A stretch of DNA of 64,000 nt from contig JBAYKO010000001.1 in the NCBI GenBank assembly GCA_041664605.1, forward strand, positions 9,220-73,219. Direction: 5' to 3'. The notes under the pieces are model-generated. The model made no database searches. It was not told the origin of the DNA and saw only the letters and a list, made by a program, of their open reading frames with translations. This stretch comes from Minisyncoccota bacterium (GTDB taxonomy: Bacteria; Patescibacteriota; Minisyncoccia; Phycocordibacterales; UBA9973). The translations under genes were made by a program, and so were the position numbers. Each line of letters opens with the position of its first letter. Position 1 is the stretch's first letter. Shown here in pieces: positions 33,279 to 48,400 of this stretch.

Positions 33279-33295
33279 GATTCCTGTCGAGGACA
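33279..33295 (+). other. duplicated 3' fragment of tRNA-Arg (17 nt)
   Basis: gattcctgtcgaggaca is identical to the 3' end of the tRNA-Arg. Confidence 0.55.
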
Positions 33296-33297
33296 CA

Positions 33298-33627: not shown

Positions 33628-33678
33628 AAGGGTTATCTTTTAACTTTATAACTTTATGAACTTTTAACTTATGTATAT

Positions 33679-33755
33679 GCCCAAGTAGCTCAGTTGGTTA
33701 GAGCATTCGCCTGAAGAGCGAGGGGTCGGCAGTTCGAATCTGCCCTTGGGCACCA
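33679..33755 (+). tRNA. tRNA-Phe (anticodon GAA), CCA encoded
   Basis: GCCCAAGTAGCTCAGTTGG...; anticodon loop ctGAAga; ends GGGCACCA. Confidence 0.9.
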
Positions 33756-33816
33756 AATAAAAAAAACATCTTCTTTGAAATTTGAGCAGAAGAGATTAAA
33801 GAAATATAAATAATAA

Positions 33817-33852
33817 AAACCCCGCTCCGATTTTGGTCGGAGCGGGGTTTTT
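33817..33852. terminator. bidirectional terminator
   Basis: aaaaccccgctccgattttggtcggagcggggttttt. Confidence 0.7.
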
Positions 33853-33853
33853 A

Positions 33854-34345
33854 TTATACTGATTTTACTTTTAGATTTGTTTGTTTATTCTTGTCTATTT
33901 TCGGAAGTTTTATTATTAGAAGTCCGTGTTTTTCCATAGCCTCAGCATCTTCTGGTTCAATCTCTTGGGGAAGTAGGATTGATCGCGAGAATGATCCCCA
34001 ATATAATTCTTTTACAAAATAATTGTCATCGTTTATTGTCCTATTTACCTCTCTCCTTCCTTTGAGGTTTACCATGTCTCTTGTGATGTTTATACTTAAA
34101 TCTTCTGGTCTTACTCCTGCTACCATAGTTTGAATTACAATATCGGTTGGCGTCTGATATACATCAACAGAAAGTTGTCCGTCTTCCTCCTCTTCATTAA
34201 ATTCCTCCTCGTCGAAATCACCTGTAGTTGATTTTACAGAAAGTTTTCTCTTTTTGCTGGTTTCTTCTTCAATCCCTCTTTCATCTTCTTCGTCTAATCT
34301 AACACCTCCGGTTAATCTTTCAAAAAATGATCTTTTTTTTGCCAT
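33854..34345 (-). CDS. Hsp20/alpha-crystallin small heat-shock protein
   Basis: alpha-crystallin core ...VKELYWGSFSRSILLP...; 163 aa. Confidence 0.75.
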   Translation of the reverse strand: MAKKRSFFERLTGGVRLDEEDERGIEEETSKKRKLSVKSTTGDFDEEEFNEEEEDGQLSVDVYQTPTDIVIQTMVAGVRPEDLSINITRDMVNLKGRREVNRTINDDNYFVKELYWGSFSRSILLPQEIEPEDAEAMEKHGLLIIKLPKIDKNKQTNLKVKSV

Positions 34346-34463
34346 CCCAATTAGAAATTAAAAACTTTTACTTAATATTATCTTAAATTTATAAAAGTAA
34401 TTAATTGTGATTATGTTTTTAAATTTTCCCATCAGTATATTTTTAATGGGACACGTAAATTTT

Positions 34464-35171
34464 TTAACGAACCCTAATTCTTAAATCTGGATCCATTCTT
34501 CTTAGTTTTTCAAAAAGTAACATTATAATAATAGTAATGACCCACAAGAATGAGAAAATATTTATAAGATTCCCCTTGTTGTTATTCATTATAAAAAAAT
34601 TAAAAATACTATGCAAGGAAATCGCAGCAATTATTCCACAAAATAAATAAATTCTTTTAACATAAACCTTTTTATAATAAAAAGCTAGTCCCAGTGATAT
34701 TCCAATTAAGGCACTAGATGAAGAATGAAGTAGTGTTGCACCCAAAAATCTTAAGTTTCCTGTAATTAAACTAACTGTTGTTTCATTTAGAAGTATTGGT
34801 TTTATTAAAAACATTGTATTTTCAAGAGCAGCAAAACCAAGAGCGGCAGTTATAAAATATATAGGATAGTCCACTGGTTCATCAAGGGAACTACTCTTTA
34901 ACGCGATTACAGCTACAGCTAAATATTTCATTATTTCTTCTAACATTGCCCAGATTACTGTTAAGTAATTTTTGTCAGTGATATTTGCGTTAGCCCATTT
35001 TTCAAGAGGTAAAACCAGTGCAACGGCAACCATCCCCAAAATAAAAGTAAGAAATAATAATCCTTTTGGTTCAGGTTCTTCTTTGTCTTGTTTTAACCAA
35101 AACCAAAGCCAAATCAAGGCCGGGATTGTTCCTGCAACCAATGCTATTATTAATATTTTTGGATTTTGCAT
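34464..35171 (-). CDS. PrsW-like intramembrane protease family protein
   Basis: Membrane protein with EEIMK (EExxK), FAALE (FxxxE) and HSIFN (HxxxN) motifs. Confidence 0.45.
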   Translation of the reverse strand: MQNPKILIIALVAGTIPALIWLWFWLKQDKEEPEPKGLLFLTFILGMVAVALVLPLEKWANANITDKNYLTVIWAMLEEIMKYLAVAVIALKSSSLDEPVDYPIYFITAALGFAALENTMFLIKPILLNETTVSLITGNLRFLGATLLHSSSSALIGISLGLAFYYKKVYVKRIYLFCGIIAAISLHSIFNFFIMNNNKGNLINIFSFLWVITIIIMLLFEKLRRMDPDLRIRVR

Positions 35172-35259
35172 AGATTAGGTTTTAGATAAGAATTTTCATT
35201 TTTTACTTTATAACCCCAGTAGTAGAGCAAAGCTCACTACGGGGCATGCTTTATAAACT

Positions 35260-37458
35260 TTATAACTTTCTACTTATTTGGGGCCAGGGTTCTACTATTA
35301 ATAAATTTTTATTTTTTTCTGGTAATAATCCCCAAATTTCTTCCGTAATAAAAGGCATAAAGGGATGAAGACAAACTAAAATTTTATTAAGTGTGTGTAA
35401 TAAAAACTGTCTCCTTGATAATTTTTCTTCTTCTGTTCCATTTTCAAATATTTTTTTACTATCTTCTAAAATTATATCTGCAAATTGGTGCCATGTATAA
35501 TGGTAAATTTTTTCAGAAGCAATATAGAATTTATAGTCGTCCATATCTTTAGTTATATCAACTATTAAATCATGTCTTTCTTTTTGTAAATCTAAATCTT
35601 TTTCCGAATAATTTTCAAAATTTTTGTCATATTTTATTTCTTTTGTGTTATCTAAAACAAATCTTGTTATATTCCAAATTTTATTTGCAAAGTGTTTATA
35701 TCCTTTTATTTCTTCTTCTGCTATTCTCATATCTATTCCAGGGCTTTTTGAAACAATAAGAGACATTCTAACAGCATCAGCTCCGTATTTTTCTATAACT
35801 TCAATAGGATTTATTCCATTGCCGAGTGATTTACTCATTTTCCTTCCTTGTTTATCTTTTACCATTCCATGGAGATAAACAGTGTTAAAAGGTTTTTCTC
35901 CTAAAATATATTCTGACATTAAAATCATTCTAGCTACCCAAAAGAAAAGTATGTCATACATTGTCTCTAGTACATTTGTTGGATGATAAGTTTTTAAATC
36001 TTCGGTTTTTTCCGGCCATCCCAAAGTTGAGAATGTCCAAAGACCAGATGAAAACCAAGTATCAAGTGTATCTTCATCTTGAATCCAGCCATCTTCTTTA
36101 GGTGCTTCTGTATTGCAATAAATTTCTTCACCCTTGTACCAAACAGGAATTCTGTGACCATACCAAATTTGTCTTGAAATACACCAATCACGCAGATTTT
36201 CAATCCAGTGAAAATAAGTTTTATCAAAATAATTAGGAATTAATTTGATTTCTTTATCACGAATTGGTTCCAACATTAATTCTTTAAGACTTTTGTCCCC
36301 GCGATTTTTAATTTTTTTATTAACATCAATAAACCATTGAAGTTTTGGCAATGGTTCAATTGTCCCACCAGTTCTATCCGCAACAGAAATGTTTTGTTCA
36401 ATTTCTTCTTCTTTTTCTAATAACCCTTCTTTTTTTAACCACTCAACAATAATTTCTCTAGCCTCAGTAGTTTTTTTGCCTTTCAAATTTTCGTTATCAA
36501 TCATCATTCGGGCTTTTTCATCAATAACTTGAATAATCGGTAAATTATTTTTTTGCGCCATTTCCCAGTCAATTACACTGTGAGCAGGGGTAACTCCAAG
36601 AGCGCCAGTTCCAAAACCTTTATCAACTTCATAGTCTGCAATTATTTTTATTTCTAATTTAACTCCGCAAAAATTATCTATAGTGTAAGTTTTACCAACA
36701 AATTCTTTGTAACGAGGATCGTCGGGGTGAACAGCAACAGCGGTATCACCAACCTTCGTTTCAGGCCTTGTTGTGGAAATTGAAATAGGGAAGTCTTTCG
36801 AATATTTAAAAGTATAAAATTTTGCTTTATTTGGTTTATGATCAACTTCATCATCAGAAACAACCGTTTGACCTTTGGGATCCCAGTTTACAATTCTAAG
36901 TCCTCTATAAATTAAACCGTCTTCATACATTTGTTTAAATGCTGTGCGAACGGCCAAGTTTCTTTTTTCATCAAATGTAAATGCTTCACGAGACCAATCC
37001 ATAGAAGAGCCCATTTTTTTTAATTGACCGATTATAGTGTTATGACTTTCGTCTGCGAATTTTTCAACTCTTTTTAAAAATTCCTCTCTTCCTAAATCAT
37101 ATCTTGATTTATTTTCTTTTTTTAACAGTTCTTTTTCAACAACTGATTGAGTTGCAATAGCAGCATGGTCAGTTCCTGGAACCCATAAAGTTCTTTTACC
37201 CCTCATTCTATTATAACGGATCATTATATCTTCAATTGTAGTACCTAATGCGTGACCCATGTGTAAAATTCCAGTTACATTAGCTGGGGGAAATGAAATA
37301 CAAAAAGATTCGGCGTTTTTTTCTGTAAAACCTTTTTCTATACAAATATCAGGATTAAAAAGCCCACTTTCTTCCCAAAGTTTATAAATACGAGACTCAG
37401 TTTCTTTTGGGTCATAAGGTTTTAAAAGTTTTTCATTTATATTATTTTCTAGTGCCAT
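35260..37458 (-). CDS. valS: valyl-tRNA synthetase (compact, no C-terminal coiled coil)
   Basis: HIGH motif PPANVTGILHMGHAL; KMSKS motif GRKMSKSLGN; editing domain present; 732 aa. Confidence 0.9.
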   Translation of the reverse strand: MALENNINEKLLKPYDPKETESRIYKLWEESGLFNPDICIEKGFTEKNAESFCISFPPANVTGILHMGHALGTTIEDIMIRYNRMRGKRTLWVPGTDHAAIATQSVVEKELLKKENKSRYDLGREEFLKRVEKFADESHNTIIGQLKKMGSSMDWSREAFTFDEKRNLAVRTAFKQMYEDGLIYRGLRIVNWDPKGQTVVSDDEVDHKPNKAKFYTFKYSKDFPISISTTRPETKVGDTAVAVHPDDPRYKEFVGKTYTIDNFCGVKLEIKIIADYEVDKGFGTGALGVTPAHSVIDWEMAQKNNLPIIQVIDEKARMMIDNENLKGKKTTEAREIIVEWLKKEGLLEKEEEIEQNISVADRTGGTIEPLPKLQWFIDVNKKIKNRGDKSLKELMLEPIRDKEIKLIPNYFDKTYFHWIENLRDWCISRQIWYGHRIPVWYKGEEIYCNTEAPKEDGWIQDEDTLDTWFSSGLWTFSTLGWPEKTEDLKTYHPTNVLETMYDILFFWVARMILMSEYILGEKPFNTVYLHGMVKDKQGRKMSKSLGNGINPIEVIEKYGADAVRMSLIVSKSPGIDMRIAEEEIKGYKHFANKIWNITRFVLDNTKEIKYDKNFENYSEKDLDLQKERHDLIVDITKDMDDYKFYIASEKIYHYTWHQFADIILEDSKKIFENGTEEEKLSRRQFLLHTLNKILVCLHPFMPFITEEIWGLLPEKNKNLLIVEPWPQISRKL

Positions 37459-37543
37459 ATATGGGTATAATATAACATTTTAAAGGGATTTTTGAAATAA
37501 TTTTTGAAACTACACCCGCACACTTAGAATTAAGTGTGCGGGG

Positions 37544-37578
37544 TTGACAAAAAAACTAGGTTTGTTATACTGTATGCA
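37544..37578 (+). promoter_or_regulatory. sigma70-like promoter candidate (TTGACA, about 16 nt, TATACT)
   Basis: ttgacaaaaaaactaggtttgttatact. Confidence 0.4.
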
Positions 37579-37584
37579 GATTTG

Positions 37585-38086
37585 ATGGTCGTTTTATTAA
37601 ACTCTCTTTAAACAGTAGTTGGCTAGCGCAGGCCCATCCCGCGGAAACATTAGGGTGAGACTCCCTATAGAAAACGAGCTAGCCAATTGCTGATGGATTT
37701 TAATAAACACTTTAGTTTTTTAAATAATATAAATTTATAAAGATAGTAGTTGGTCACCATAGGCTGTGACAACTCAGGCATTGTTAGTTTGATTCTTAAT
37801 AACTTTGCCAACATGGATTATCTGATGATCAGGGATCCAGTGTCTTTCAGACAAACAAAGGTTCATCTTTCATTTTTAAGAATCCGAAAGAAATCCACGA
37901 TGGAATTCTTCTCGTCATTAAATTTGGATCTTTGTTTTTCTTTTTTAAATATATTTTCCAGACAAGGTTTTACCTTGAAAGGACTTTGTGGGAAGACCCA
38001 CTGTTACTAAAAAGAAAAGCCTCCAGAATGGAAGGAGAAACGGCTTTTAGAGACACACACGCGAGTAATCGCGTGTTTTTGTTTTT
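37585..38086 (+). ncRNA. candidate structured non-coding RNA, family unidentified
   Basis: No plausible ORF. A 10-bp long-range helix gttggctagc/gctagccaat encloses a GC-rich core. Several further hairpins follow. The stretch ends at the intrinsic terminator 38057..38086. Confidence 0.35.
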
Positions 38087-38157
38087 ATTGACAAAAACAT
38101 TTAATATGATAAATTATCAAACAGATAAATAAGTTATTCACGTTAAATATTCTGTGT

Positions 38158-38370
38158 ATGGAAAATTTCAAAACTCCCAAAATAAGTATTAATTTTATCC
38201 CATGGCTTTTGTTTGTGGGAATATGGACTGCATCACTCTTTATGAATGTATTTGTGTTTAGAACAGATACTTATCTGTATGTGAACGTAGTAGTTTCGAT
38301 TCCCCTCACTATTTGGGGAATTGCGTTGTGGATAAAAGATCACAGAATGAAACATTATCGTTTGTCGTGA
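38158..38370 (+). CDS. small two-TM membrane protein, hypothetical
   Basis: 70-aa ORF preceded by a promoter-like TTGACA. Confidence 0.3.
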   Translation: MENFKTPKISINFIPWLLFVGIWTASLFMNVFVFRTDTYLYVNVVVSIPLTIWGIALWIKDHRMKHYRLS

Positions 38371-38459
38371 TTTTTAAACATTAAATTATTAAAAACACCC
38401 TTTCATGGGTGTTTTTGTTTTTATTCCTCACAATTTTAATTTTTAAAATAGTGAGGGGT

Positions 38460-39653
38460 TTACAATTCCAAATTTCCCTGAGCTCTCAAGGTTTTTGAAC
38501 TTACATTTTTAGATTTACTTCTAAAAAATCCGGCGATTGCTATCATTATAGAATTATCGGTTGATAGATCTTTGGCAGGGAAGTAGACTTTTAATTTTTT
38601 TGTATTTTTACAAACTTCTGTAAATGTTTCTCGAATTTTTTGATTAGCTGAAACTCCACCCCCAATAATTAAAGTTTTTGCTTTGTATTTTTCTACAGCA
38701 CCCATAGTTTTTTTAATCAAAACTTCTACAACGGAATCTTCAAACTCTTTTGCAATGTCTTTTTTCATTTGGTCATTTTGCAAAATGTTTGAATGTTGTT
38801 TCTCAAGATTGCGAATTAAATAAAAAACTGCAGTTTTTAATCCGGAAAAAGAAAAATCAAAATCTTTGGAATTTATCATAGGTCGGGGGAGCTTAATCAA
38901 ATCATTTTGTTTTCCGTTTTTTGCTAATTTTGAAATTTGTGGGCCACCAGGATAAGGAAGTCCAAGCATTCTAGCAACCTTGTCAAAAGCTTCACCAACT
39001 GCGTCGTCTCTCGTTTTTCCAATAACTTTATATTTTAACCAGTCTTTCATCAAAACAATTTCTGTATGCCCACCACTTATAAGTAGAGCCATAGCAGGGA
39101 ATTGAACTTTATTAATTTTTTTATCATCAATTAAAGTAGAAACCATATGACCTTCCATATGATTTACTGGGATTAATTTTTTTTTCCAAACAAAAGATAA
39201 AGCTTTTGCAAAATTCAGTCCAACCCAAAGTGCTGGCTCAAGTCCTGGTCCATAAGTAACAGCAATTGCATCAATTTTTGGAATTTTGATTTTGGGAATA
39301 AGATTTAAAAATTTTTCTAATAGTTCTGGTTCTCTTTCTAATATTTTATTTATTTTGTCATTTTGCAAAATGTTTGAATGTTGTTTTCGAAGAACTAAAA
39401 GTCTTGCTTCTTTTAAGACTCTTTCTAAAATAGGTATGATATTTTTTGAGTGTTCTCTTTTTGCCATCATAGGAAAAACACCCCCATACTTTTCATGGAT
39501 TTTAATTTGTGAAGCCACTTCATTCCCAAGAATTTTAAATTTTGCCTGCCCGCCAAAGCCTTGGCGACGGCGGGGATGTTTAATTGTCCCCGAAGCTTCT
39601 ATTATACTTATTGCTGTTTCATCACATGATGTCTCGATACTTAAAATTTTCAT
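38460..39653 (-). CDS. tsaD: tRNA N6-adenosine threonylcarbamoyltransferase TsaD (carries two short duplicated insertions)
   Basis: MKILSIETSCDETA..., HMEGH metal site, GGVSAN; 397 aa versus about 340 typical. Confidence 0.85.
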   Translation of the reverse strand: MKILSIETSCDETAISIIEASGTIKHPRRRQGFGGQAKFKILGNEVASQIKIHEKYGGVFPMMAKREHSKNIIPILERVLKEARLLVLRKQHSNILQNDKINKILEREPELLEKFLNLIPKIKIPKIDAIAVTYGPGLEPALWVGLNFAKALSFVWKKKLIPVNHMEGHMVSTLIDDKKINKVQFPAMALLISGGHTEIVLMKDWLKYKVIGKTRDDAVGEAFDKVARMLGLPYPGGPQISKLAKNGKQNDLIKLPRPMINSKDFDFSFSGLKTAVFYLIRNLEKQHSNILQNDQMKKDIAKEFEDSVVEVLIKKTMGAVEKYKAKTLIIGGGVSANQKIRETFTEVCKNTKKLKVYFPAKDLSTDNSIMIAIAGFFRSKSKNVSSKTLRAQGNLEL

Positions 39654-39831
39654 AATTAAAATCTAACGTATTTTTAATAAAAATACTATATCTGTTGTGG
39701 CTAGAAATAATTTTGTCGCCGTCGCTCAAAAATTTTTCCAGCCCTGACTCGTCTGTTTTTTCTACTGAAAAAACATGACTCCGTCTCTCACAGCTAAAAA
39801 ATTCAAAGTAGTTTGAATTTTTCTTTACGCT

Positions 39832-39905
39832 GTGAGCGGTAGAAGGATCGGACTTCTGACCTCTTCGATGTCAACGAAGCGCTCTACCACTGAGCTAACC
39901 GCTCC
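39832..39905 (-). tRNA. tRNA-Val (anticodon GAC), with a non-canonical T-loop and a G1-A72 mismatch
   Basis: The reverse complement reads GGAGCGGTTAGCTCAGTGGTAGAGCGCTTCGTTGACATCGAAG...CTTCTACCGCTCA, with the anticodon loop ttGACat. Confidence 0.6.
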
Positions 39906-39920
39906 AAAATTAAACACAAA

Positions 39921-39968
39921 CGCTCTACTTCACCCCGCCATGGCGGGGCAGGCTGAGCTAACCGCTCA
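39921..39968 (-). other. duplicated 5' fragment of tRNA-Val (16 nt, with a T at position 1) plus a GC hairpin insertion
   Basis: minus strand tgagcggttagctcag-cctgccccgccatggcggggtgaag-tagagcg. Confidence 0.6.
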
Positions 39969-40050
39969 TATTTTATAAGATTACATTATTTTTTTTAAAA
40001 AACAAATTTGATGTATAATCAAAGTAGATGATCTTAAAAAGGATATAATT

Positions 40051-40542
40051 ATGAAAAAGAGAGTTTACTTCATTGCTTTTGATAATCCTCTCGTCAAGGT
40101 TTGTACAAGTGGAGTTTTTCCTTTAGAAATAGTTGTAGATTTGACAAGACTTTATGATAATGGAGATTTAAAAAGAGAAATGAGATGGCAATTTTTTGGT
40201 GAATTAGAAGATGGTTCTTTTGATTTAATAATAATTAAAGAAGATATTTTTCAAGCTATTGAGGAGTTTTTTGCTTCTGAATTCAAAACTTTGATACTTT
40301 TTTTTAATAATAAATATTTGTCTTATTTTAAAGAAGTGACAAAAGAACAAGAAGAATATATATTACAGACGACAGAAATAATTTTTTGTGATGATGTTCT
40401 TAATCTAAACTTGGGGGAATATTTAAAAAAGAAAAAGATTCTCTGCACTCTTAATTTTGAAGGAGAAAGACTCAGTATTAATAGAATTTCTACTGAAGAC
40501 ATACCAAATTCTTTTTCAAAAAAATTTATTCCATTAAATTAA
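40051..40542 (+). CDS. hypothetical protein
   Basis: 163-aa ORF followed by a terminator hairpin. Confidence 0.4.
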   Translation: MKKRVYFIAFDNPLVKVCTSGVFPLEIVVDLTRLYDNGDLKREMRWQFFGELEDGSFDLIIIKEDIFQAIEEFFASEFKTLILFFNNKYLSYFKEVTKEQEEYILQTTEIIFCDDVLNLNLGEYLKKKKILCTLNFEGERLSINRISTEDIPNSFSKKFIPLN

Positions 40543-40631
40543 AAAAATCCGCCACAAGCGGATTTTTCTTATTCTTGATATTTTTATATTTTATGGTAAT
40601 ATTAAATCAGATGTTTTAAAAAGTTATTTTT

Positions 40632-40982
40632 ATGGATACTCCAACGATAATTTCTTTATTACTTATTTTTATAATAATAAGTAGTCTTATTGTAAGAATT
40701 GTTGATGAAATATTTGGGAGAACAACCCTCATAGAAGGAGAGGTTTATTACAAAAAAGAGGAAACTTTTTCCTCGAGTATTAATGACGACAGTGGTTTAC
40801 CCATTATTTGTCAAAATATGAAATCATTTTTCCTTTACTTGAAAGTAAAGGAAAAGAAGAGAAAAATTTCTGTTGATTTACAAGATTTTAATAAGGTTAT
40901 AAATGGAACATATAAATTTTCCTTTAAAGAAGGGCTTGTCTCCAAAAAACTTTATTATCAAAAGATTCTCTTTAATGATTAA
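40632..40982 (+). CDS. hypothetical protein with an N-terminal TM helix
   Basis: 116-aa ORF. Confidence 0.35.
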   Translation: MDTPTIISLLLIFIIISSLIVRIVDEIFGRTTLIEGEVYYKKEETFSSSINDDSGLPIICQNMKSFFLYLKVKEKKRKISVDLQDFNKVINGTYKFSFKEGLVSKKLYYQKILFND

Positions 40983-41037
40983 TAAAAAGACATAAAGATG
41001 TTACCTAAAACCCCGCACAATGCGGGGTTTAACTTTG

Positions 41038-41124
41038 CGGAGGTGGGAGGATTTGAACCTCCGATCCACTTGCGCGGATTCCGCGTTTCGAGTGCGGTGC
41101 CTTCAACCACTCAGCCACACCTCC
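41038..41124 (-). tRNA. tRNA-Ser (anticodon CGA), type II with a long variable arm
   Basis: reverse complement GGAGGTGTGGCTGAGTGGTTGAAGGC...ctCGAaa...GGTTCAAATCCTCCCACCTCCG. Confidence 0.75.
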
Positions 41125-41215
41125 GTGAACTTTTCTACTATAACATTTTTGCTATTTTTATTAAAAATGTTATTATATTTTCTAGTTTTTAAAAATCAAA
41201 AATAAAATATTATTT

Positions 41216-41275
41216 GGCCCTATCGTCCCTGCCAGCCCTCACGATAGTTCGGGAGCAGGCTGGTAACGGTTAGGA
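41216..41275 (+). other. duplicated 5' fragment of tRNA-Glu interrupted by a 36-nt GC-rich hairpin
   Basis: ggccctatcgtc-[cctgccagccctcacgatagttcgggagcaggctgg]-taacggttagga, compared with the intact ggccctatcgtctaacggttagga at 41526. Confidence 0.65.
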
Positions 41276-41285
41276 TATAAAAATT

Positions 41286-41540
41286 ATGTATTTTGTGTAT
41301 GTTTTAAAAAGCAAAATTGATAATAAACTTTATTATGGTTTTACTAATGATTTAGAAAGAAGAGTTAGAGAACATAATAATAAAGAAGTGAGAGCAACAA
41401 GGCCTAGAGTTCCTCTTGAATTGATTTACTTTGAAAATGTAGATAATATAGAAAAAGCAAGAAAAAGAGAAAAATATTTTAAAAGTGGTTTTGGAAGAAA
41501 ATATATAAAAAACAAAATATTATTTGGCCCTATCGTCTAA
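41286..41540 (+). CDS. GIY-YIG nuclease family protein (YhbQ/UPF0213-like)
   Basis: YFVYVLKS...LYYGFTNDLERRVREHN; 84 aa; the stop codon lies inside the 5' end of tRNA-Glu. Confidence 0.7.
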   Translation: MYFVYVLKSKIDNKLYYGFTNDLERRVREHNNKEVRATRPRVPLELIYFENVDNIEKARKREKYFKSGFGRKYIKNKILFGPIV

Positions 41541-41597
41541 CGGTTAGGACATCGGCTTTTCAAGCCGGTAATCCGGGTTCGATTCCCGGTAGGGTCA
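41526..41597 (+). tRNA. tRNA-Glu (anticodon TTC)
   Basis: GGCCCTATCGTCTAACGGTTAGGAC; anticodon loop ttTTCaa; T-arm GGGTTCGATTCCC. Confidence 0.85.
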
Positions 41598-41699
41598 CAG
41601 CTTATTTTAACCTTATTATGTAAGGGGTATTTTTTGTTGACAAAAGATGGATAATTTGATATCTTGTGAATAGAAAAAGTTATTTTAAATGATGAAAGT

Positions 41700-42149
41700 A
41701 TGGTAGTTTCAAGAAAAAGTTGGCATTTTAATTTAGTAAAACACAAAAGTTTTGTTTCGGAATCCAAGTGTGATAACAAAGATGCAACTAATTATATTGC
41801 AGAAGTAATATTAAGTCTCTGGCTTATCACAGTTTTTGGCTTAATGATTTTTACTACTTTAATTGGGATTGCTTCAGCTCAACCTGGTTCAGGTTTTGGA
41901 GCTTTTATTATAGAATACAAAAAAATCGTAGTGATTATTTTTGCTATTTTTATAACCCTTCCTATTTGGAGTTGTATTTTTTTAATAATAATTGAACCCC
42001 TTACGAAAAAGTCTTGGAGAAGATTAAGAATTACAGGAAGAACATGGGATGAATATTTTACAAATCTTAGAAGCTTAAGAAATGTAAAAACTCCCGAAAA
42101 AGAAGCGGAGTCTTTTAAATCTGAATCTTCCATTGTTCCTACTAATTAA
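41700..42149 (+). CDS. hypothetical membrane protein
   Basis: 149 aa with about 3 TM helices. Confidence 0.4.
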   Translation: MVVSRKSWHFNLVKHKSFVSESKCDNKDATNYIAEVILSLWLITVFGLMIFTTLIGIASAQPGSGFGAFIIEYKKIVVIIFAIFITLPIWSCIFLIIIEPLTKKSWRRLRITGRTWDEYFTNLRSLRNVKTPEKEAESFKSESSIVPTN

Positions 42150-42224
42150 AAACATCATTATTTCCCAACCCCCAGAAATGGGGGTTTTGGTTTTCCTTAG
42201 AGATGTTGTCAAATAGTTTTAATT

Positions 42225-42629
42225 ATGCTAATTTTAAGGCAGAAAAGTTGTTTAAAATTAGTAAAAATGCAAAAGATCATCAATAAAATAGAGGGTCTTT
42301 TTAAGATACCTTTTTGGCATGTCATTTTATTTTCTTTATTATTTTTAACTATTGCGTTAAATTCAGTTCTTGGAGTTATAAAAGCTGAAACAATAACAGA
42401 GAAATTTTTTCAAGGATTTTATTATATTCACAATATTGATTATCCCAGAATTCTTATTCAATGTGTGGTTGTGCCTTTTATTTTCTTTTCTCTTGTTTGG
42501 ATTATTTTAAAAAAAATTAATAATAAACAGACAAAAGAAAATGATTATTTAATGGTTCTTTTCCAGCTTTATATTTATAATCTATTAGCAGGAGCAATAA
42601 CTATGCTGATACTAGCTTTCGTACATTAA
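42225..42629 (+). CDS. hypothetical membrane protein
   Basis: 134 aa with about 3 TM helices; flanked by mirror-image terminator hairpins ccccc-agaaat-ggggg and ccccc-atttct-ggggg. Confidence 0.4.
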   Translation: MLILRQKSCLKLVKMQKIINKIEGLFKIPFWHVILFSLLFLTIALNSVLGVIKAETITEKFFQGFYYIHNIDYPRILIQCVVVPFIFFSLVWIILKKINNKQTKENDYLMVLFQLYIYNLLAGAITMLILAFVH

Positions 42630-42915
42630 ATTTTTTAAAAAGAAAATTAATTTTTGTTTTAAAACCCCCCATTTCTGGGGGTTTTAGTTTTTCATGTATA
42701 AGAGATTGAGTAATTTTTCCCCATATATACAAAATTACACCCTGTGATATTATTTACATTATGTTTAGAATAATCGCCTATATCTTATTTTTTCCGCTGA
42801 TGTTTCTCCATGCTGGTCTTGGATGGGTGGTTGAACAACTTTCTGAACACATAGATTAAATATTTGAAATTAAAAAATCCCCTTCTGTTTACACCGAAGG
42901 GGATTTTTTTAAAGT

Positions 42916-43842
42916 TTATTTATTATGAAGATAAATATAAATATTTTCTAGTGCCTTTATTGCATCTCCAGCAGCAATCATGTTTTGGTGATATATTCCA
43001 TCAGAACAATCTCCAGCTGCCCAAATTCCTGGGACAGAGGCCGTTTGAGTTTTAGGGTCAACTATGATTTTTCCATAGGCATCAAGGATTACTAAATCTT
43101 TTACAAAATCGGTATTTGCAATTTGTCCGATTTCAACAAATATTCCTGTGGTATTTATTTCGTGGTTTTCTCCCGTCTTTAAATCTTTGTAAACCAAACT
43201 TTTTACGAAATCGTCACCTTTAACCTCAACTGTCTCTGCACTTGTTATGGTTTTAGCTTTTGGATTATTTAAAACTTTTTCAACTGTAATTTTATCTGCT
43301 TTAAAATCTGGGCTATGGTGAATAATTGTTACGCTTTTTGAGTAAGCTAAGAGTTGAGCAGCTGATTCAAAACCAGCATTACCTCCACCAATTACAACAA
43401 CATCTTGATCTGAAAACATTGGACCATCACAAGTAGCACAATAGGTGAGTCCTTTGTGTTCAAATTTGTCGGCTCCAGGGACTTCTAATTTTCTTCGTCC
43501 ACTGCCGGTTACTACAAGAATAGCTTTTGCTTCATAAACATTTTTTCCATCAGTTTCAATGGAAAAATTTTCTCCGCTCTTTTTAATAGATAAAACTTTT
43601 TCTCCTTCCTTTATCTCTAAAACATCACTTTTGTATGCCTCAACATGTTTTTTAAAATTTTCAGCTAAATCAGTCCCGCTTATAGAAATATTTCCTGTCC
43701 AATTTTGAATATTAGGAGAAACAATAGATTGTCCTCCGAAATCAGGAGTAATAAGGATAGTTTTTATTTTTTTTCTGGCTGCGTAAACCGAAGCAGAAGC
43801 TCCAGCTGGACCGCCACCGATTATTGCAAGTTCGTATAACAT
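42916..43842 (-). CDS. trxB: thioredoxin reductase
   Basis: FAD-binding motif IIGGGPAG, redox-active CATCDG, NAD(P)-binding motif VVIGGGNAG. Confidence 0.85.
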   Translation of the reverse strand: MLYELAIIGGGPAGASASVYAARKKIKTILITPDFGGQSIVSPNIQNWTGNISISGTDLAENFKKHVEAYKSDVLEIKEGEKVLSIKKSGENFSIETDGKNVYEAKAILVVTGSGRRKLEVPGADKFEHKGLTYCATCDGPMFSDQDVVVIGGGNAGFESAAQLLAYSKSVTIIHHSPDFKADKITVEKVLNNPKAKTITSAETVEVKGDDFVKSLVYKDLKTGENHEINTTGIFVEIGQIANTDFVKDLVILDAYGKIIVDPKTQTASVPGIWAAGDCSDGIYHQNMIAAGDAIKALENIYIYLHNK

Positions 43843-43912
43843 AAATTTTATTCTATCAAAAAACACACAAAAACAAAACACCCAGATTTGGGTGTTTTGT
43901 TTTTGTGTGTTT

Positions 43913-45082
43913 TTACTTTTTTCTTCTTAAAAAAGCGGGGACAGCGTTCCAATCATCTTGGTCGTCTTCAACTATTTCTGCCTCATCTTCTATTTTTATT
44001 TCGATTTTTTTAGGAAATTCAGGTGTTTCTGGTAGGGAATTATGAATTTCCTTTTTTTCTTCTCTCGTAATACTAGTAGGAGATTGATATTGTTGGAATA
44101 GAGTTTTTTTAGGTAATTCATCTGGAGTAAATCCAAACCCAGTAGCAATAACTGTAACTTTAACTTCACCCTTTTTTAGTCTATCATCTTTTATTGTTCC
44201 AAAAATAACTTTTGCATCTTTGTCGATTGATTCTGTAATAATTTTTGCGATATCCTGAATTTCGTGAATTGTTAAATCTTCACCACCAGAAATGGCAAAT
44301 AAAACTCCTTTCGCACCGTTTATGGATATTTCAAGCAGGGGAGAATTAATTGCTTGTAAGGCAGCCTTTTCAGCTCTATTTTCTCCTGCTCCATAACCAA
44401 TTCCCATTAAAGCAGATCCAGCATTAGACATAATTGCTTTTATATCAGCGAAGTCAACATTGATTATTCCCGGCATAGTTATCAAATCAGAAATTCCTTC
44501 AACTGCTTGTTTTAAAATTTCATCACACATTGCGAAAGCATCACCGAAACTTGTTTGTTTGTCTGCAACAGAAAGAAGTCTGTCATTTGGTATAACAATA
44601 ATAGCATCAACTTCATTTCGTAATTCATCTAATCCTTGTTCAGCTAGTTTCATTCTTTGTGATCCCTCAAAAAAGAATGGTTTTGTGATTACTGCAACAG
44701 TTAGAATTCCTTGTTCTTTGGCTAATTTTGCCACAACAGGAGTAGCACCAGTTCCAGTACCTCCACCCATACCACAAGTTATAAAAACCATATCTGCACC
44801 TTTTACTGCATCTTGAATTTCAGCTTTGGTTTCTTCCGCTGCCTTTTTTCCTGTTTCTGGATTCATTCCAGTACCAAGACCTTTTGTTAGGTTTTTTCCT
44901 ATGTGAATTTTTTTATCTGCAAGAGAGTGATGTAAGTCTTGAGTGTCAGTATTCATTACAATGAATTCAACACCTTTAACTTTTGCGCTGACCATGTGGT
45001 TTGTAGCATTCTTTCCTGAACCTCCAACACCAATAACCTTGATTCGTGCAAATGATTCTATTTCTGGATTTACTTTAGGCAT
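43913..45082 (-). CDS. ftsZ: cell division GTPase FtsZ
   Basis: IKVIGVGGSGKN and the GGGTGTG tubulin signature. Confidence 0.9.
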   Translation of the reverse strand: MPKVNPEIESFARIKVIGVGGSGKNATNHMVSAKVKGVEFIVMNTDTQDLHHSLADKKIHIGKNLTKGLGTGMNPETGKKAAEETKAEIQDAVKGADMVFITCGMGGGTGTGATPVVAKLAKEQGILTVAVITKPFFFEGSQRMKLAEQGLDELRNEVDAIIVIPNDRLLSVADKQTSFGDAFAMCDEILKQAVEGISDLITMPGIINVDFADIKAIMSNAGSALMGIGYGAGENRAEKAALQAINSPLLEISINGAKGVLFAISGGEDLTIHEIQDIAKIITESIDKDAKVIFGTIKDDRLKKGEVKVTVIATGFGFTPDELPKKTLFQQYQSPTSITREEKKEIHNSLPETPEFPKKIEIKIEDEAEIVEDDQDDWNAVPAFLRRKK

Positions 45083-45175
45083 AATGTTTTAGCTTTAGAG
45101 CTAAAAAGCTTGGGAGCTTTAAAGCTTCTTTATAATAAATAATACACAATCATAATAACAGAAACAAAAAAAAAG

Positions 45176-45197
45176 AAAACCCCCGAAAAAGGGGGTT
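45176..45197 (-). terminator. intrinsic terminator for ftsZ
   Basis: cccccgaaaaaggggg with a minus-strand U-tail. Confidence 0.65.
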
Positions 45198-45239
45198 AAA
45201 TAGGGGAGTTTTTAGCTAGGTTTTTAGACAAAAAAATCA

Positions 45240-45268
45240 AAACCCCGCGAATGCGGGGTTTTTGTCAA
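45240..45268. terminator. bidirectional terminator hairpin
   Basis: aaaaccccgcgaatgcggggttttt. Confidence 0.65.
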
Positions 45269-45284
45269 ATGTGGTTAATCTTAT

Positions 45285-45716
45285 TTAGTCAGATATTCTA
45301 TACAGACTATTTGAAACTTTTCTGTATCTTCCGACAGGTGAACTTCCGAATTCACTGAAAAAATCTGAGGGCAAAATCCACATAAATATGTCGTGATCTT
45401 TTTCTCCGATTTTTACGACACACAACATCTCTTTGGTCTTTGAATTAGGATCTTCTTTTGTTTTAAGATGATACTTGATCCTTAAAAAAATATTATCGTT
45501 AATGTCAGAGACCAAATAATATTCTTTTTTTCTTTCCCAAAATGATCCCCCAATGGCAGCACTAAAAATGCCCAATATGCAAATAACTAACATTACATCT
45601 CTGTTGATTGTTATCAATTCGCAAAGATAACAGTAAATAAAAATTATAATCAATAAGGCCACTAAAAGAAGGACTAATCCTACTTTCTTTTCTTTTGTTA
45701 ATTTCATAGAACTCAT
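45285..45716 (-). CDS. hypothetical membrane protein
   Basis: 143 aa with two N-terminal TM helices. Confidence 0.4.
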   Translation of the reverse strand: MSSMKLTKEKKVGLVLLLVALLIIIFIYCYLCELITINRDVMLVICILGIFSAAIGGSFWERKKEYYLVSDINDNIFLRIKYHLKTKEDPNSKTKEMLCVVKIGEKDHDIFMWILPSDFFSEFGSSPVGRYRKVSNSLYRISD

Positions 45717-45865
45717 ATTAAAAATTTTCTGCCTTAGTTATATCAGATTATTAAAATTTGTCAATCCGACACACCAAGTAAACTAAGTGTGTGAATAATA
45801 AATAAAAAACACCTCTTTTAAAGGTATTTTCACTAGAACCTAACCCCTAGAAACTACAACCTAAT

Positions 45866-47035
45866 TTATGGCATCAATTGTTGAAAAATCGAGTTGAAGA
45901 ATTTTTTTGTTTTTCTTATAACTTCATTTGCGCCACCACCAGAAATTTCTTTATCAGAAATATCTCCACCCTCAGCAACACATAATCCATAAGCAACAAA
46001 CCAAGAAGTGTCTTTGAGTTTATTTTTTGAATAACCATCTTCAACACCACCAATTCTTGAAGGAAGTTTTAACATACTCTTTGAGAGTTCTTCAATTGTT
46101 GAAATATGTGAACCTCCACCCGTGATAATAATTCCAGCTGGCAAGAGCCCATTTCTTTTTAGCTTCTTTAAATGAATTTCTACTAATTCAAATATATCTG
46201 ACAAACGAGCGTCTATTATTTCGGTAAGTTTTTTTCTAGGGAAATCACCAATAATACTTCCAATTTTTAAACTCTCAGCTTCTTCAAGAGGAATTTTAAA
46301 ACCAAGAGCAATGTCGTTTGTTATTTGAGTTGATCCTACATTAAAAACATAGAGAGAAATTAAATTATTATTTTCAAAAACAGCCAAGGAGACAGTCTCA
46401 GCTCCTATGTCTATCAAGGCACAACCAGCTGTTTTTTGTCTTTCACTTAAAACAACAGCACTAGAGGCAAGAGGGGATGCGATTATGTCTCCGACTTCAA
46501 CTCCCGCTTCTCTGACAGCTAAAATAAGATTTTCTAAGTGTTGTTCAAGACATGTTACAAAAAGTGTTTTAACTTCAAGTTTTAAACCTTTCATTCCTTC
46601 AGGCTTTCCGAGAATTTCTTTTCCGTCCAATTTATATTCAATAGGAATGTTGTGGATTATTTTTTTATTTGGAATTTTAAGATTTTCTTCGCTTAGATTT
46701 ATAGCTTTTATAATATCAAGAGTAGTAACTTCGTCATTAGCTTTCGATATAACTGCATCCCCAGTACTTGTTTCAGAACTTAAGCTTATTCCGCCTATGG
46801 AAACAACAGCCCTCTTAATCTTTATTCCTGAATTTTTCTCCGCTTCGTTAACAGCTTTTTTTATACCTTTTGAAGCTTCAGTATGATTTGTAACATAACC
46901 ATGGCGAAGACCTCTCGATGGGCTTATTCCCGTGCCAATTACTTTCGGTACAGATTCATTTTTTAGATATTCACAAACAACAACTCTTGTTGAGTATGTT
47001 CCAACATCTATTCCAACTGATATTTTTCTTATCAT
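45866..47035 (-). CDS. ftsA: cell division protein FtsA
   Basis: actin-like fold GIDVGTYSTRVVV ... IIITGGGSH. Confidence 0.85.
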   Translation of the reverse strand: MIRKISVGIDVGTYSTRVVVCEYLKNESVPKVIGTGISPSRGLRHGYVTNHTEASKGIKKAVNEAEKNSGIKIKRAVVSIGGISLSSETSTGDAVISKANDEVTTLDIIKAINLSEENLKIPNKKIIHNIPIEYKLDGKEILGKPEGMKGLKLEVKTLFVTCLEQHLENLILAVREAGVEVGDIIASPLASSAVVLSERQKTAGCALIDIGAETVSLAVFENNNLISLYVFNVGSTQITNDIALGFKIPLEEAESLKIGSIIGDFPRKKLTEIIDARLSDIFELVEIHLKKLKRNGLLPAGIIITGGGSHISTIEELSKSMLKLPSRIGGVEDGYSKNKLKDTSWFVAYGLCVAEGGDISDKEISGGGANEVIRKTKKFFNSIFQQLMP

Positions 47036-47077
47036 GACTGATTTTCTTATGAGTGGAACGATTTAGAAAATCGTCAC

Positions 47078-47181
47078 CCAGCACATAAATTTATTTGTTG
47101 TTATTTAATTTTATAATACCACTAAAATGATTTAGACTCTTGTACATAAATTTCATATAGTACATAAATTTATGTGCTGGG
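47078..47181. promoter_or_regulatory. operator-like repeats of the palindrome ACATAAATTTATGT upstream of ftsA
   Basis: cacccagcacataaatttat at 47078..47098, gtacataaattt twice, and the inverted copy acataaatttatgtgctgggt at 47162..47182. Confidence 0.45.
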
Positions 47182-47218
47182 TTAAGAAAAATATATTTCG
47201 CTTCGCTTCATTATTTTT

Positions 47219-47617
47219 CTAAACTTTAAGAATTTTTCCAAATTTTTCTTCCTCACTTTCCATTTTACTACTATGTTTGAATCCTTTCAAATGCAGTAAA
47301 CCGTGGATAAGTAAAAATTGAAGAAAATTTGTCGAAGTGCGGTTGAAATCTTTTGCTTGCCTTTTGACTTCTTGCATACAAAAAATAATTTCCCCGTCTT
47401 TTTTTGAAAGAGGGAAGCTTAATATATCTGTTGGTTCATTTTTTTTACAATAAGTTTTGTTTAATTCACAAATCACTTTTGGAGACACGAAAGCAACACT
47501 TAATTCATATTCTTTCCCTAAAATAGTGTCTTTAAATTTAGAAAAAGACAAGCGTGGTAGCTTGCCTTTTGTCGTATTTTTTATAAAAACCTTTTTTTGA
47601 TTTTTGGGGTTGGTCAT
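47219..47617 (-). CDS. ybeY: rRNA maturation endoribonuclease YbeY
   Basis: HGLLHLKGFKH zinc-binding H3xH5xH motif. Confidence 0.8.
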   Translation of the reverse strand: MTNPKNQKKVFIKNTTKGKLPRLSFSKFKDTILGKEYELSVAFVSPKVICELNKTYCKKNEPTDILSFPLSKKDGEIIFCMQEVKRQAKDFNRTSTNFLQFLLIHGLLHLKGFKHSSKMESEEEKFGKILKV

Positions 47618-47623
47618 TTATGT

Positions 47624-47851
47624 TTAAGCGATTTTTCCCATTTTTCTCAATTTTTCATTCACCTTTCTTTTTGCTAGTCTCTTTAATGCGCCCTTTTTGA
47701 GTGTAAGTTTTGATTCAGCTCTTTCATTGTATCTTTTTGATCTAGCCTTTTGTAAAACTTGGGATTCTTGAACACGCTTTGAGAATCTTCTAATAAGACT
47801 CGCATTGTTTTCATTTTGGTTTTTCTTTACTTCAATGTTTATGTTTTTCAT
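47624..47851 (-). CDS. rpsU: 30S ribosomal protein bS21
   Basis: SLIRRFSKRVQESQVLQKARSKRYNE...LKRLAKRK follows the S21 pattern. Confidence 0.7.
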   Translation of the reverse strand: MKNINIEVKKNQNENNASLIRRFSKRVQESQVLQKARSKRYNERAESKLTLKKGALKRLAKRKVNEKLRKMGKIA

Positions 47852-48400
47852 ACAAGGGAAATCTTATCATGAAATATGAAAATAGGCAACAAAAAGGGCT
47901 ACATCGTAGCCCTTTAATCTTATTAAGGATTTTTTACACCTTTGCGAAAGTCTTGCTTTCGCAAAGGTAGTAGGTGATATAAAAACACGGATGGCCTTAA
48001 TAGAAGTTTGCGAAAGCAAGACTTTCGCAGACTTTAAATTTTAATATATTGATATAAAAATAGAAAAAAGACTGCAATGCAGTCTTTTTCAATGAACCGA
48101 CAGAAAGCTATCTTTTAAGTGATTTAATAAAATCATTAAGTGATATCAGTGTGTCAATTGTGGTAGCACAACCCAGATTTTCTGTTAAATTTTTAACCTT
48201 CTTTTGCCCCTTTTCTGCTTCTTGGGGAGAAAATGGACCAATAACTATTATTTTGCCGTTTGGCATGGAGAACAAAAGAACTTTGTTTTTCATAAGATAT
48301 GAATTTAAAAAATCTAAATACATTGTATCACATAGAATATATTTGTCAATATTAAAGAAAAGGACCGACCTTTATACAAAGGTCGGCCCTCTGTATTCTT

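Follow-up and report, generated by a model that had tools for sequence, protein, structure and literature searches.

Why should a bacterial tRNA gene be preceded by a broken copy of its own 5' part, and why should the gene for a small nuclease lie between the two? The question is raised by a locus in a stretch of 64,000 nucleotides (nt) from a Minisyncoccota bacterium (GenBank assembly GCA_041664605.1, contig JBAYKO010000001.1), whose genome has a G+C content of 31%; this whole stretch is referred to below as the window, and coordinates are window positions unless another locus is named. In window order, the locus consists of tRNA-Glu positions 1-12, a GC-rich hairpin of 36 nt, tRNA positions 13-24, an open reading frame (ORF) for a GIY-YIG nuclease, and an intact tRNA-Glu(UUC) gene. 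The same design recurs across many tRNA genes in hundreds of uncultured bacteria, and the explanation that we favour, and consider fairly probable, is that 41216-41525 is a 310-bp insertion in tRNA-Glu(UUC) and a member of a widespread family of selfish tRNA-gene cassettes.

Organization of the tRNA-Glu locus

The elements of the locus are collected in Table 1. An initial annotation, made from the sequence alone, had described its three-part layout, with a GIY-YIG ORF that reads its end from a repeat and an intact tRNA-Glu behind it, and all of this, coordinates included, is borne out by the sequence. The ORF has no stop codon of its own: its last four codons and the TAA are tRNA-Glu positions 1-15, the ending ILFGPIV plus stop being read from the second repeat copy and the tRNA-Glu D-loop. 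The 64 kb holds exactly two copies of the 24-nt block AAAATATTATTTGGCCCTATCGTC, one at 41204-41227 and one at 41514-41537, and zero matches in 100 shuffles rule out a chance repeat; it can be extended to 33 nt at 94% identity (41195-41227 against 41505-41537). The block TAACGGTTAGGA is likewise present at 41264-41275 and 41538-41549, with ten nt between its first copy and the ORF. The 36-nt insert CCTGCCAGCCCTCACGATAGTTCGGGAGCAGGCTGG, which splits the tRNA sequence between positions 12 and 13, is unique in the 64 kb and folds, as single-stranded DNA, into a hairpin of -10.6 kcal/mol (z = -3.8). We refer to this palindrome as PAL; homologous PALs stand at the equal place in loci L003, L004, L005, L007 and L009. 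The 21-nt stretch ahead of segment a probably derives from a previous generation of the cassette, the alternative being that the repeat itself extends this far, and the AGGA inside segment b may, to judge from its sequence, serve as the ribosome-binding site of the ORF.

Table 1. Elements of the tRNA-Glu locus and of the related unit beside tRNA-Val in the window.
Feature	Position	Strand	Basis
Promoter-like site: TTGCTA, 16 nt, TATTAT, with TG in front	41149..41176	+	Motif search; putative function
21-nt stretch, 19/21 identical to the ORF 3' end (41505-41525), in-frame IKNKILF	41195..41215	+	Repeat comparison
Displaced tRNA-Glu 5' fragment, segment a (tRNA positions 1-12)	41216..41227	+	Repeat match
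PAL, imperfect GC-rich palindrome, 36 nt, tRNA-Glu-clade type, CCYGCCAGCCCTCCCG..CGGGAGCRGGCTGG	41228..41263		Fold and homologous PALs
Segment b, tRNA-Glu resumes (positions 13-24 exact, 13-27 with one mismatch)	41264..41278	+	Repeat match
Stand-alone GIY-YIG nuclease gene, 84 codons, UPF0213/Slx1 type	41286..41540	+	Pfam, homologues, structure model
Second repeat copy: ORF 3' end and tRNA positions 1-24, unbroken	41505..41549	+	Repeat match
Intact, presumably functional tRNA-Glu(UUC)	41526..41598	+	ARAGORN; Rfam tRNA, 65.5 bits
tRNA-Val unit: tRNA positions ~2-16	39953..39967	-	
tRNA-Val unit: PAL CCTGCCCCGCCATGGCGGGG(TGAA)	39929..39952	-	
tRNA-Val unit: tRNA positions 19-26	39921..39928	-	
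tRNA-Val unit: ~16-nt spacer	39905..39920	-	

The promoter-like site, by its motif and place, would be the native tRNA-Glu promoter, which is now located before the displaced fragment and from which both the nuclease ORF and the tRNA are probably transcribed. Two further plus-strand matches before the tRNA are both weak (9/12) and lie inside the ORF at 41351-41381, and a search for a terminator-like site ahead of tRNA-Glu found none. The distance from the -10 box to the start of the tRNA sequence is 39 nt in the window, as against about 13 nt in sites without the insertion such as L158.

An assembly artefact can be rejected, because the locus reads identically in an independent ENA assembly of this organism (L081), which differs from the window over 6.4 kb at two positions only, 39906 and 39918, both in the spacer beside tRNA-Val. 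Each of four assemblies of the organism either matches the window or breaks within tRNA-Glu; the contigs of the Logan assemblies L082 and L083 begin at window position 41571, inside that gene, probably because its 3' half is common to another tRNA gene of the genome. The neighbouring 149-aa protein has no homologues beyond itself. A group I or other catalogued intron finds no support in an Rfam scan of the window at gathering thresholds, which places no ribozyme or RNA family in the insert (elsewhere it finds only six tRNAs and a LOOT RNA), and splicing is unnecessary since the downstream tRNA-Glu is complete.

The nuclease

The protein matches the Pfam profile GIY-YIG (PF01541) over residues 1-72 with 56.2 bits (cut-off 22.6; E = 4.4e-15), and a profile of 40 homologues matches the solved UPF0213 proteins BH0048 (1zg2; E = 3e-8) and EF2693 (1ywl; E = 3.2e-8), in agreement with the YhbQ-type assignment made at the outset. 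An AlphaFold2 model (pLDDT 93.7) has the GIY-YIG fold, with the topology beta-beta-alpha-alpha-beta-alpha-alpha, and Foldseek matches it to 1zg2, to Slx1 (7cq2, 6sei and 4xlg; TM ~0.65) and to I-TevI (1ln0). By sequence and fold together, the nearest solved proteins are those of UPF0213 (BH0048, EF2693), followed by the nuclease domain of Slx1 and, after it, by the catalytic domain of I-TevI. Pfam match and model both span the whole protein, which is a catalytic domain alone with no extra DNA-binding domain.

All 81 of the family members compared share residues Y5, Y16, G18, R26, H30, E50, E62 and K66, and the catalytic set of the GIY-YIG superfamily (Tyr, Tyr and Gly, Arg, His and the metal-binding Glu) is complete; the spacing of Y5, Y16, R26 and H30 equals that of Y6, Y17, R27 and H31 in I-TevI. 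All 80 related ORFs are intact, with 77-87 codons. Given these ORFs, the invariant residues and the confidently modelled fold, the nuclease looks active. No NCBIfam model reaches its own cut-off for the 84-amino-acid (aa) protein. PADLOC matches no defence family at E <= 0.01, and an anti-phage defence system was rejected on this ground; PHROGs gives a weak match to a GIY-YIG homing endonuclease family, and a phage-borne homing gene was rejected in view of the single relative found in the 2.9 million viral contigs of IMG/VR.

Recurrence and geometry of the cassette

A protein homologue search returned 175 sequences at E <= 1e-5, of which the best 120 were inspected; those with a named source belong to Patescibacteria. 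The C-terminal residues are translated from the tRNA-Glu 5' end in 62 of the 120, with endings of the A-L-S-S-N-G type in 58 and GPIV in four, that is, from identical tRNA sequence in two reading frames. A scan with one genome per species gave at least 525 relatives, from which the 80 loci analysed here were picked for best matches. A same-strand tRNA gene lies within 450 nt downstream of the ORF match in 63 of the 80 and begins within 20 nt of the ORF stop in about 40 of those 63, and 11 tRNA identities occur next to cassettes (Glu, Lys, Arg, Thr, Asn, Met, Gln, His, Pro, Val and Phe). PAL stands within 45 nt upstream of the ATG in 56 loci and between ORF and tRNA in 14 more. In the 44 loci where the upstream unit is measurable, it is laid out as tRNA positions 1-x, PAL, 5-16 nt of tRNA (median 10), 1-27 nt, and the ATG, with PAL following tRNA position 5-22 and adjoining a TA; family-wide, PAL occurs at positions 2 to 22 and in the anticodon loop. 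The sequence on each side of PAL nearly always agrees with the local tRNA, and does so in 11 tRNA species.

The repeat usually starts at, or a few nt from, tRNA +1 and is 7-34 nt long, or up to 77 nt if shared upstream flank is counted. Fragment and gene copies are identical in most loci. The upstream fragment of L073 has the acceptor strand GGATCCG and the adjacent tRNA-Val has GGGCAAT, with identical D-arms, and the fragment of L008 also differs in part from the acceptor stem of its adjacent gene. The L073 mismatch fits horizontal arrival and not local duplication. The target-site duplication first suggested for this locus is therefore doubtful, in view of the start near +1, the range of lengths and L073 together; by analogy with fungal mobile endonuclease ORFs, a replacement 5' gene segment would fit better than a staggered-cut duplication.

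Integrated elements are another conceivable source of such repeats, since tRNA genes are well-known targets of integration and are left with partial tRNA repeats on their flanks, and the loci might then be remnant attachment sites of integrase-type elements or prophages, with an unrelated nuclease gene left over. Some loci do carry downstream 3' tRNA fragments, as tRNA-Arg of the window does (33279-33296). We nevertheless consider this origin extremely unlikely: there is no integrase gene nearby (among ORFs of at least 80 aa at 30000-48000, only some of which are identified), the repeat is the 5' part of the gene, the unit measures only about 300 bp, the same PAL, ORF and geometry are found at 11 tRNA species, and the family is essentially absent from viral contigs. 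Neither a recombinase gene nor a kilobase-scale element bounded by a 3' tRNA repeat was found, the GIY-YIG ORF being the sole gene of the 310-bp unit.

The palindrome and its pairing with the nuclease

The hairpin is more than a chance interruption of the tRNA copy: it is a conserved element, linked to the nuclease clade, and the distance between it and the cassette is fixed at about 10 nt. The ends of PAL conform to (CCNG)2CC...GG(CNGG)2, and the interior varies in sequence and length; PALs are found in both orientations, nested in L002 and in tandem in L140. The termini are perfectly complementary in 30 of 54 cases and show a 'swapped' pattern in 11, and covariation support for the stem is mixed. 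A neighbour-joining tree of the ORFs has three clades, and PAL type tracks them: a Bacteroidota clade at tRNA-Arg(ACG) has a 20-nt PAL, CCTGCCTGCCGGCAGGCAGG; the tRNA-Glu clade, which includes the window, has PALs containing CTCCCG..CGGGAG; and a large clade, with the PAL CCCGCCCGCAACGCC..GCGATGGCGGGCGGG, is spread over ten tRNA species. Within the large clade, identity between ORFs at different tRNAs (74-79%) equals that between ORFs that share a tRNA, which points to repeated switching between tRNA species. The PAL termini are kept while the proteins diverge to about 50% identity, and PAL thus appears to be under selection.

A separate observation concerns the ORF 3' ends of the large clade (L030, L033, L039, L060, L061, L026, L068), where ..AGA ATA TAA T places a TATAAT 2-10 nt before tRNA +1; from its sequence, the cassette may there supply a -10 element to the downstream tRNA.

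Several simpler roles for PAL were considered. Nearly all PALs in about 440 kb of related loci are located within or beside tRNA sequence, which makes a genome-wide miniature repeat unlikely; a strict scan of the window for perfect GC-rich stems returned mostly ordinary terminator-like hairpins. An intrinsic terminator or a regulator in the 5' untranslated region of the ORF was rejected: no T-run follows PAL, and the upstream position in 56 loci, the downstream one in 14 and a mirrored case imply that PAL tracks tRNA sequence and not ORF expression. A repair scar drawn from the flanks was also rejected, because the PAL sequence is conserved across genomes and unrelated to its flanks.

The same regularities bear on a PAL-centred transposition with a true target duplication, in which PAL and ORF would be mobile and the GIY-YIG protein would act as a structure-specific nuclease or 'transposase'. 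The protein would bind the PAL hairpin or cruciform and cut about one helical turn away, insertion would duplicate the stretch from about tRNA +1 to the cut, and only products with an intact tRNA would survive. The spacing of about 10 nt between PAL and cassette is constant wherever PAL sits, including the mirrored 3' cassette of L036, and both the retention of the termini in ORFs diverged to about 50% and the pairing of PAL type with nuclease clade are as this mechanism would have them, as are flanks that match the local tRNA in 11 species. PAL moreover occurs in both orientations, nests in itself and can enclose cargo (L002, L060); in the 14 loci with PAL between ORF and tRNA it mostly lies in the first 2-4 nt, with a GGG that mimics the tRNA 5' end; the duplicated fragment of L071 includes PAL; the repeat extends 2-5 nt upstream of +1 above chance; and the fold is closest to the structure-specific nuclease Slx1. 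Against this stand a PAL insertion that has no target-site duplication of its own, the position of PAL inside the left repeat copy and not at its end, which no simple staggered-cut scheme yields, the L073 fragment that is unlike the adjacent gene, and the highly variable length of the repeat (7-34 nt, to 77 nt with upstream flank). We also know of no GIY-YIG transposase, and on the whole regard this mechanism as possible though unlikely.

Presence and absence at orthologous tRNA-Glu sites

A survey of tRNA-Glu loci with and without the cassette, as the initial annotation had proposed, was made by scanning metagenomes with the first 43 nt of the window tRNA-Glu. It gave 82 gene copies, 72 of them with at least 330 nt upstream. 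Among these 72, all identical over the 43 nt, 54 have neither ORF nor fragment, and four have a GIY-YIG ORF, at 70%, 47%, 42% and 42% identity to the window protein, with three further PAL types, all at tRNA position 11-12; candidate ORF-less relic fragments or PALs appear in 14, a figure from pattern matches that includes at least two false positives inside a neighbouring tRNA (L114, L149). A tRNA-Ser(CGA) gene on the opposite strand is the common upstream neighbour of 32 copies, and in 14 of these 32 the spacer between Ser and Glu is 51-111 nt long and holds no tRNA 5' copy, as against 401 nt in the window. Many of the empty orthologous sites have the promoter motif aacatttttgcgattttttcaaaaatgttatgat, placed 10-15 nt ahead of tRNA-Glu +1. 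Occupied orthologous sites are those of the window, L122 and L010; in L010, PAL has the same position and a different subtype, and the protein is 62% identical.

With orthologous sites empty and the promoter now standing before the fragment, 41216-41525 is an insertion relative to these relatives; on this comparison of sequences, the arrangement is not an ancient fixed gene order, and relatives differ in the position and subtype of PAL, in the end of the pseudo-copy and in copy number. The mobile cassette in the tRNA-Glu D-loop that had been proposed for the locus is thus upheld as an insertion that varies among relatives, with its insertion point shifted to the D-stem (12/13).

Two side observations belong to these tRNA-Glu genes. 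An ORF-less leader, GGCCCTATCGTCTAACCAAGTTAGAATATAGCGGACATCGGCTTTTTGAAAAGCC, lies 45-60 nt upstream of tRNA-Glu in L093, L098, L100, L121, L126, L154, L156, L092 and others; conserved in at least 10 metagenomic loci, it resembles a tRNA-Glu 5' half with small insertions and a palindromic 'anticodon' loop, and its conservation suggests a shared old relic or a functional leader RNA. In L105 and L162, a tRNA-Glu copy that lies inside repeats with PAL-interrupted fragments is itself enlarged, after about position 46, by some 130 nt of GC-rich sequence.

The survey also bears on a domesticated, vertically inherited nuclease with a cellular role in repair or in RNA or DNA processing, co-transcribed with the tRNA, for which fragments and palindromes would be leader structures or by-products of local rearrangement. 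Such a history would agree with the 80 of 80 intact ORFs and their invariant catalytic residues, with a tRNA-Glu association that spans a whole protein clade (62 of the 120 best homologues read into tRNA-Glu), with the occupied orthologous site of L010, with the single relative among the viral contigs and with the conserved ORF-less leader. It is quite unlikely in our estimation, given the patchy distribution (54 of the 72 genes with the same 43 nt are empty, 14 of them orthologous), the placement of PAL upstream or downstream of the ORF by locus, and the tandem arrays, ORF-less relics, nested PALs, stacked GIY-YIG genes (L071, L036) and scattered tRNAs of the main clade.

Arrays, relics and mirrored variants

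Two identical 358-nt units of fragment, PAL, ORF and spacer precede tRNA-Arg in L076, and L018 has three units, both of whose readable ORFs are visibly diverged. PAL is nested within PAL in L002; L023, L012 and L069 have ORF-less units; and two different GIY-YIG genes are stacked at one tRNA in L071 and L036. The duplicated fragment of L071 contains PAL itself, and L036 is a mirror image, which reads tRNA, ORF, about 10 nt of tRNA, PAL and tRNA 3' part. The 14 loci with PAL between ORF and tRNA are mostly at tRNA-Lys, and in most of them the GGG end of PAL, within the first 2-4 nt of the working tRNA, can replace the tRNA 5' end. Contigs often end right after the ORF, as is expected where repeated DNA breaks assembly. 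Taken together, the sequences of arrays, nested PALs, ORF-less units and contig breaks read as signs of recent activity.

The window itself holds further structures of this kind. Beside tRNA-Val(GAC) (39832-39904, minus strand) lies an ORF-less unit of equal design at 39905-39967, detailed in Table 1, whose palindrome begins with the CCTGCC that also opens the tRNA-Glu hairpin, a shared start that had been noticed at the outset and that we find again. tRNA-Arg(CCU) (33100-33172) is preceded by a copy of positions 1-19 at 32972-32990 and then a 49-nt hairpin at 32991-33039 (z = -5.3) with CCCC/GGGG ends and an AT-rich interior; the downstream copy at 33279-33296 holds positions 56-73 and follows a structured stretch with an inverted T-loop copy (~33218-33230). 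From its sequence, the tRNA-Arg gene looks like one nested between both ends of an older copy. The TsaD gene (38460-39653, minus strand) carries an in-frame GC-rich palindromic insert at 39545-39575 that starts with CCTGCC and encodes roughly HPRRRQGFGGQA, in a region presumably longer than in other TsaD proteins, to go by that of E. coli; it also has two in-frame AT-rich repeats of 49 nt (38760-38808 and 39345-39393), 88% identical, with the peptide QHSNILQND. Elsewhere, in a Parcubacteria metagenome-assembled genome (L060, positions 4450-4700), the insert in the anticodon loop of a tRNA-Thr copy is made of a PAL and, after it, another PAL that holds a whole tRNA-Thr gene, different from the interrupted one, between its arms; such arms can accordingly carry cargo and extend the acceptor stem of an enclosed tRNA.

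A proposed cassette with a replacement tRNA 5' part

In the selfish-cassette reading that we favour, a unit has three parts: a displaced tRNA piece (positions 1-24 in the window) split by the conserved PAL; a minimal GIY-YIG gene of about 80 codons, which begins some 10 nt of tRNA and a short spacer past PAL; and a replacement tRNA 5' copy, abutting or overlapping the ORF end, that restores an intact tRNA. The native promoter before the displaced fragment would probably transcribe nuclease gene and tRNA together. The break made by the nuclease would fall beside a TA within the 5'-most third of the tRNA gene and would be repaired by copying the cassette-bearing allele, a homing-type gene conversion; the PAL insertion points, which cluster beside TA, are compatible with a 2-nt staggered cut. 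The tRNA-derived sequence on both sides of the ORF would serve as portable homology arms, which would let a cassette enter the same conserved tRNA gene in unrelated genomes and leave that gene unharmed. PAL would be a selected cis element, either a recognition or ruler site for the nuclease or an insertion that renders the relic copy uncleavable. Once later decay had removed the ORF, fragment and PAL would remain on their own as relics, as beside the tRNA-Val and tRNA-Arg genes of the window, and re-invasion would build tandem arrays. We hold each of these steps, from nuclease activity and cut site to homing, co-transcription, the role of PAL, the chemistry of integration and the origin of the duplication, with less confidence than the general claim.

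A number of points weigh against this account. PAL disrupts the displaced fragment and the working tRNA copy keeps an uninterrupted site, so that a nuclease aimed at the intact PAL-position site should cut its own host; the protein also lacks the DNA-binding module of the known site-specific GIY-YIG homing enzymes, I-TevI and the Seg proteins. Homing would cover spread among copies of the same tRNA but not a geometry that is re-created, with matching flanks, at new tRNA species, and it leaves the constancy of the ~10-nt segment, the conservation of PAL and the pairing of PAL with nuclease clade without explanation. The excess of the repeat upstream of +1 (median 2 nt against 0 in the control) fits a true target duplication better, the intact ORFs throughout the sample would also fit a function beneficial to the host, and L010 indicates that occupation can be old and vertical persistence substantial in the tRNA-Glu clade. 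The constant segment, the PAL-clade pairing, the re-created geometry and the uninterrupted working site favour PAL as a recognition or ruler element of the nuclease in a true duplication. We find no single mechanism that covers every regularity: duplication by a simple staggered cut, integration of a circle as in the Campbell model, and synthesis-dependent repair with a different tRNA locus as donor each fall short on one point or more.

A more speculative idea, which we rate as decidedly unlikely, is that a minimal Slx1-like nuclease is targeted, in a programmable way, by a module made of PAL and the tRNA-derived flank on either side of it. The flanks, as an extruded DNA hairpin or a leader RNA, would pair with the tRNA gene, PAL would protrude as a branch, and the nuclease would recognise the branched structure and cut at a fixed ~10 nt from it, each PAL insertion automatically making a new guide for its site. 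If true, this would explain the constant 10-nt segment, the co-variation of PAL and nuclease and the ease of switching between tRNA species; to our knowledge, guidance by nucleic acid and structure together is a principle not known for GIY-YIG enzymes.

Should the selfish-cassette reading hold, tRNA genes would host a dedicated and abundant class of miniature selfish elements, in Patescibacteria, a very large and poorly understood radiation, and in Bacteroidota. Such elements would spare an essential single-copy gene by means of a replacement 5' end and not by splicing, as introns and inteins do. They would account for the tRNA fragments, GC-rich palindromes and frequent contig breaks at the tRNA loci of these genomes, and would, for the first time, place the widespread UPF0213/YhbQ-type proteins in a genomic context suggestive of a function. 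The natural pairs of nuclease and palindrome, dozens of them and directed at different tRNAs, would become candidate compact site- or structure-specific nucleases, and the fixed 10-nt geometry poses a clear mechanistic question.

Other features of the window

The LOOT RNA found by Rfam lies at 14570-14686 on the minus strand (80.9 bits against a gathering score of 46.4). Positions 1440-3477 hold several diverged families of tandem DNA repeats, whose periods are about 156 nt and about 237-246 nt, presumably within a gene for a repetitive-domain protein.

Relation to known systems

The closest published design, by analogy, is that of the mobile endonuclease ORFs (mORFs) of fungal mitochondria, known from atp6 of Allomyces macrogynus and from atp6, atp9, cox2 and nad3 of Glomus (PMC3630166). 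There, a free-standing endonuclease ORF, of the GIY-YIG type in atp9, enters an essential gene together with a replacement terminal segment, and the native segment is displaced and kept as a non-functional duplicate (PMC3630166). The same association of an ORF with a duplicated terminal segment, the native one being displaced, is found in the window and in the 44 measured loci, and in mORFs, too, the ORF may lack a stop or start codon and run in frame with the host gene, and its presence differs among related genomes (PMC3630166). In contrast to mORFs, the cassettes reside in bacterial chromosomes (Patescibacteria, Bacteroidota) and target a tRNA gene and not a protein gene; they usually replace the 5' end, whereas mORFs replace a 3' segment, with L036 as the mirrored 3' case; their nuclease is an 80-aa catalytic domain alone; a conserved palindrome interrupts the displaced fragment about 10 nt from the cassette; and many tRNA species are used with one geometry.

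Among phage enzymes, T4 SegB is a free-standing GIY-YIG homing endonuclease encoded in a tRNA gene cluster that makes mostly 2-nt 3' overhangs; it cleaves the tRNA gene region of a relative without segB and is preferentially inherited together with flanking tRNA sequence (PMC2330249). The cassettes likewise place a GIY-YIG gene among tRNA genes, but SegB is a phage protein with additional DNA-binding regions and comes without tRNA fragment duplication or palindrome, whereas the cassettes are nearly absent from viral contigs. The UPF0213/YhbQ (COG2827) proteins and Slx1 provide the best sequence and structure matches and the same pattern of catalytic residues. No established function or genomic linkage was found for UPF0213 proteins in the literature searched, while Slx1, unlike the cassette protein, needs Slx4 and a RING domain and cuts branched DNA in repair; neither is known to us to be linked to tRNA genes or palindromes.

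Tyrosine-integrase elements also land in a conserved tRNA gene, carry a partial copy of it and leave a partial duplicate. In those elements it is the 3' part that is replaced, a recombinase is encoded, and the length runs to kilobases; the cassette, of about 300 bp, has a nuclease as its only product and in most cases replaces the 5' part. Mobile DNA that depends on hairpins includes the ends of IS200/IS605 elements, the 3' ends of Helitrons, and mitochondrial GC clusters and double-hairpin elements. Shared with the cassettes are a subterminal hairpin about 10 nt from the boundary, precise insertion with no target duplication of the hairpin element, and GC-rich palindromes in AT-rich genomes, sometimes beside tRNA genes; these systems differ in that they use HUH enzymes or have no known enzyme, and we know of none described with a GIY-YIG partner, tRNA specificity or half-gene duplication.

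The full architecture was not found described in the full texts searched, which left subscription journals mostly outside their coverage, and an earlier description is possible. The cassettes are of a known kind, that of free-standing homing-endonuclease cassettes that form gene hybrids, and what sets them apart is the combination of bacterial tRNA-gene targets, replacement of the 5' part, a domain-only, Slx1-like nuclease and an obligatory cognate palindrome at a fixed distance.

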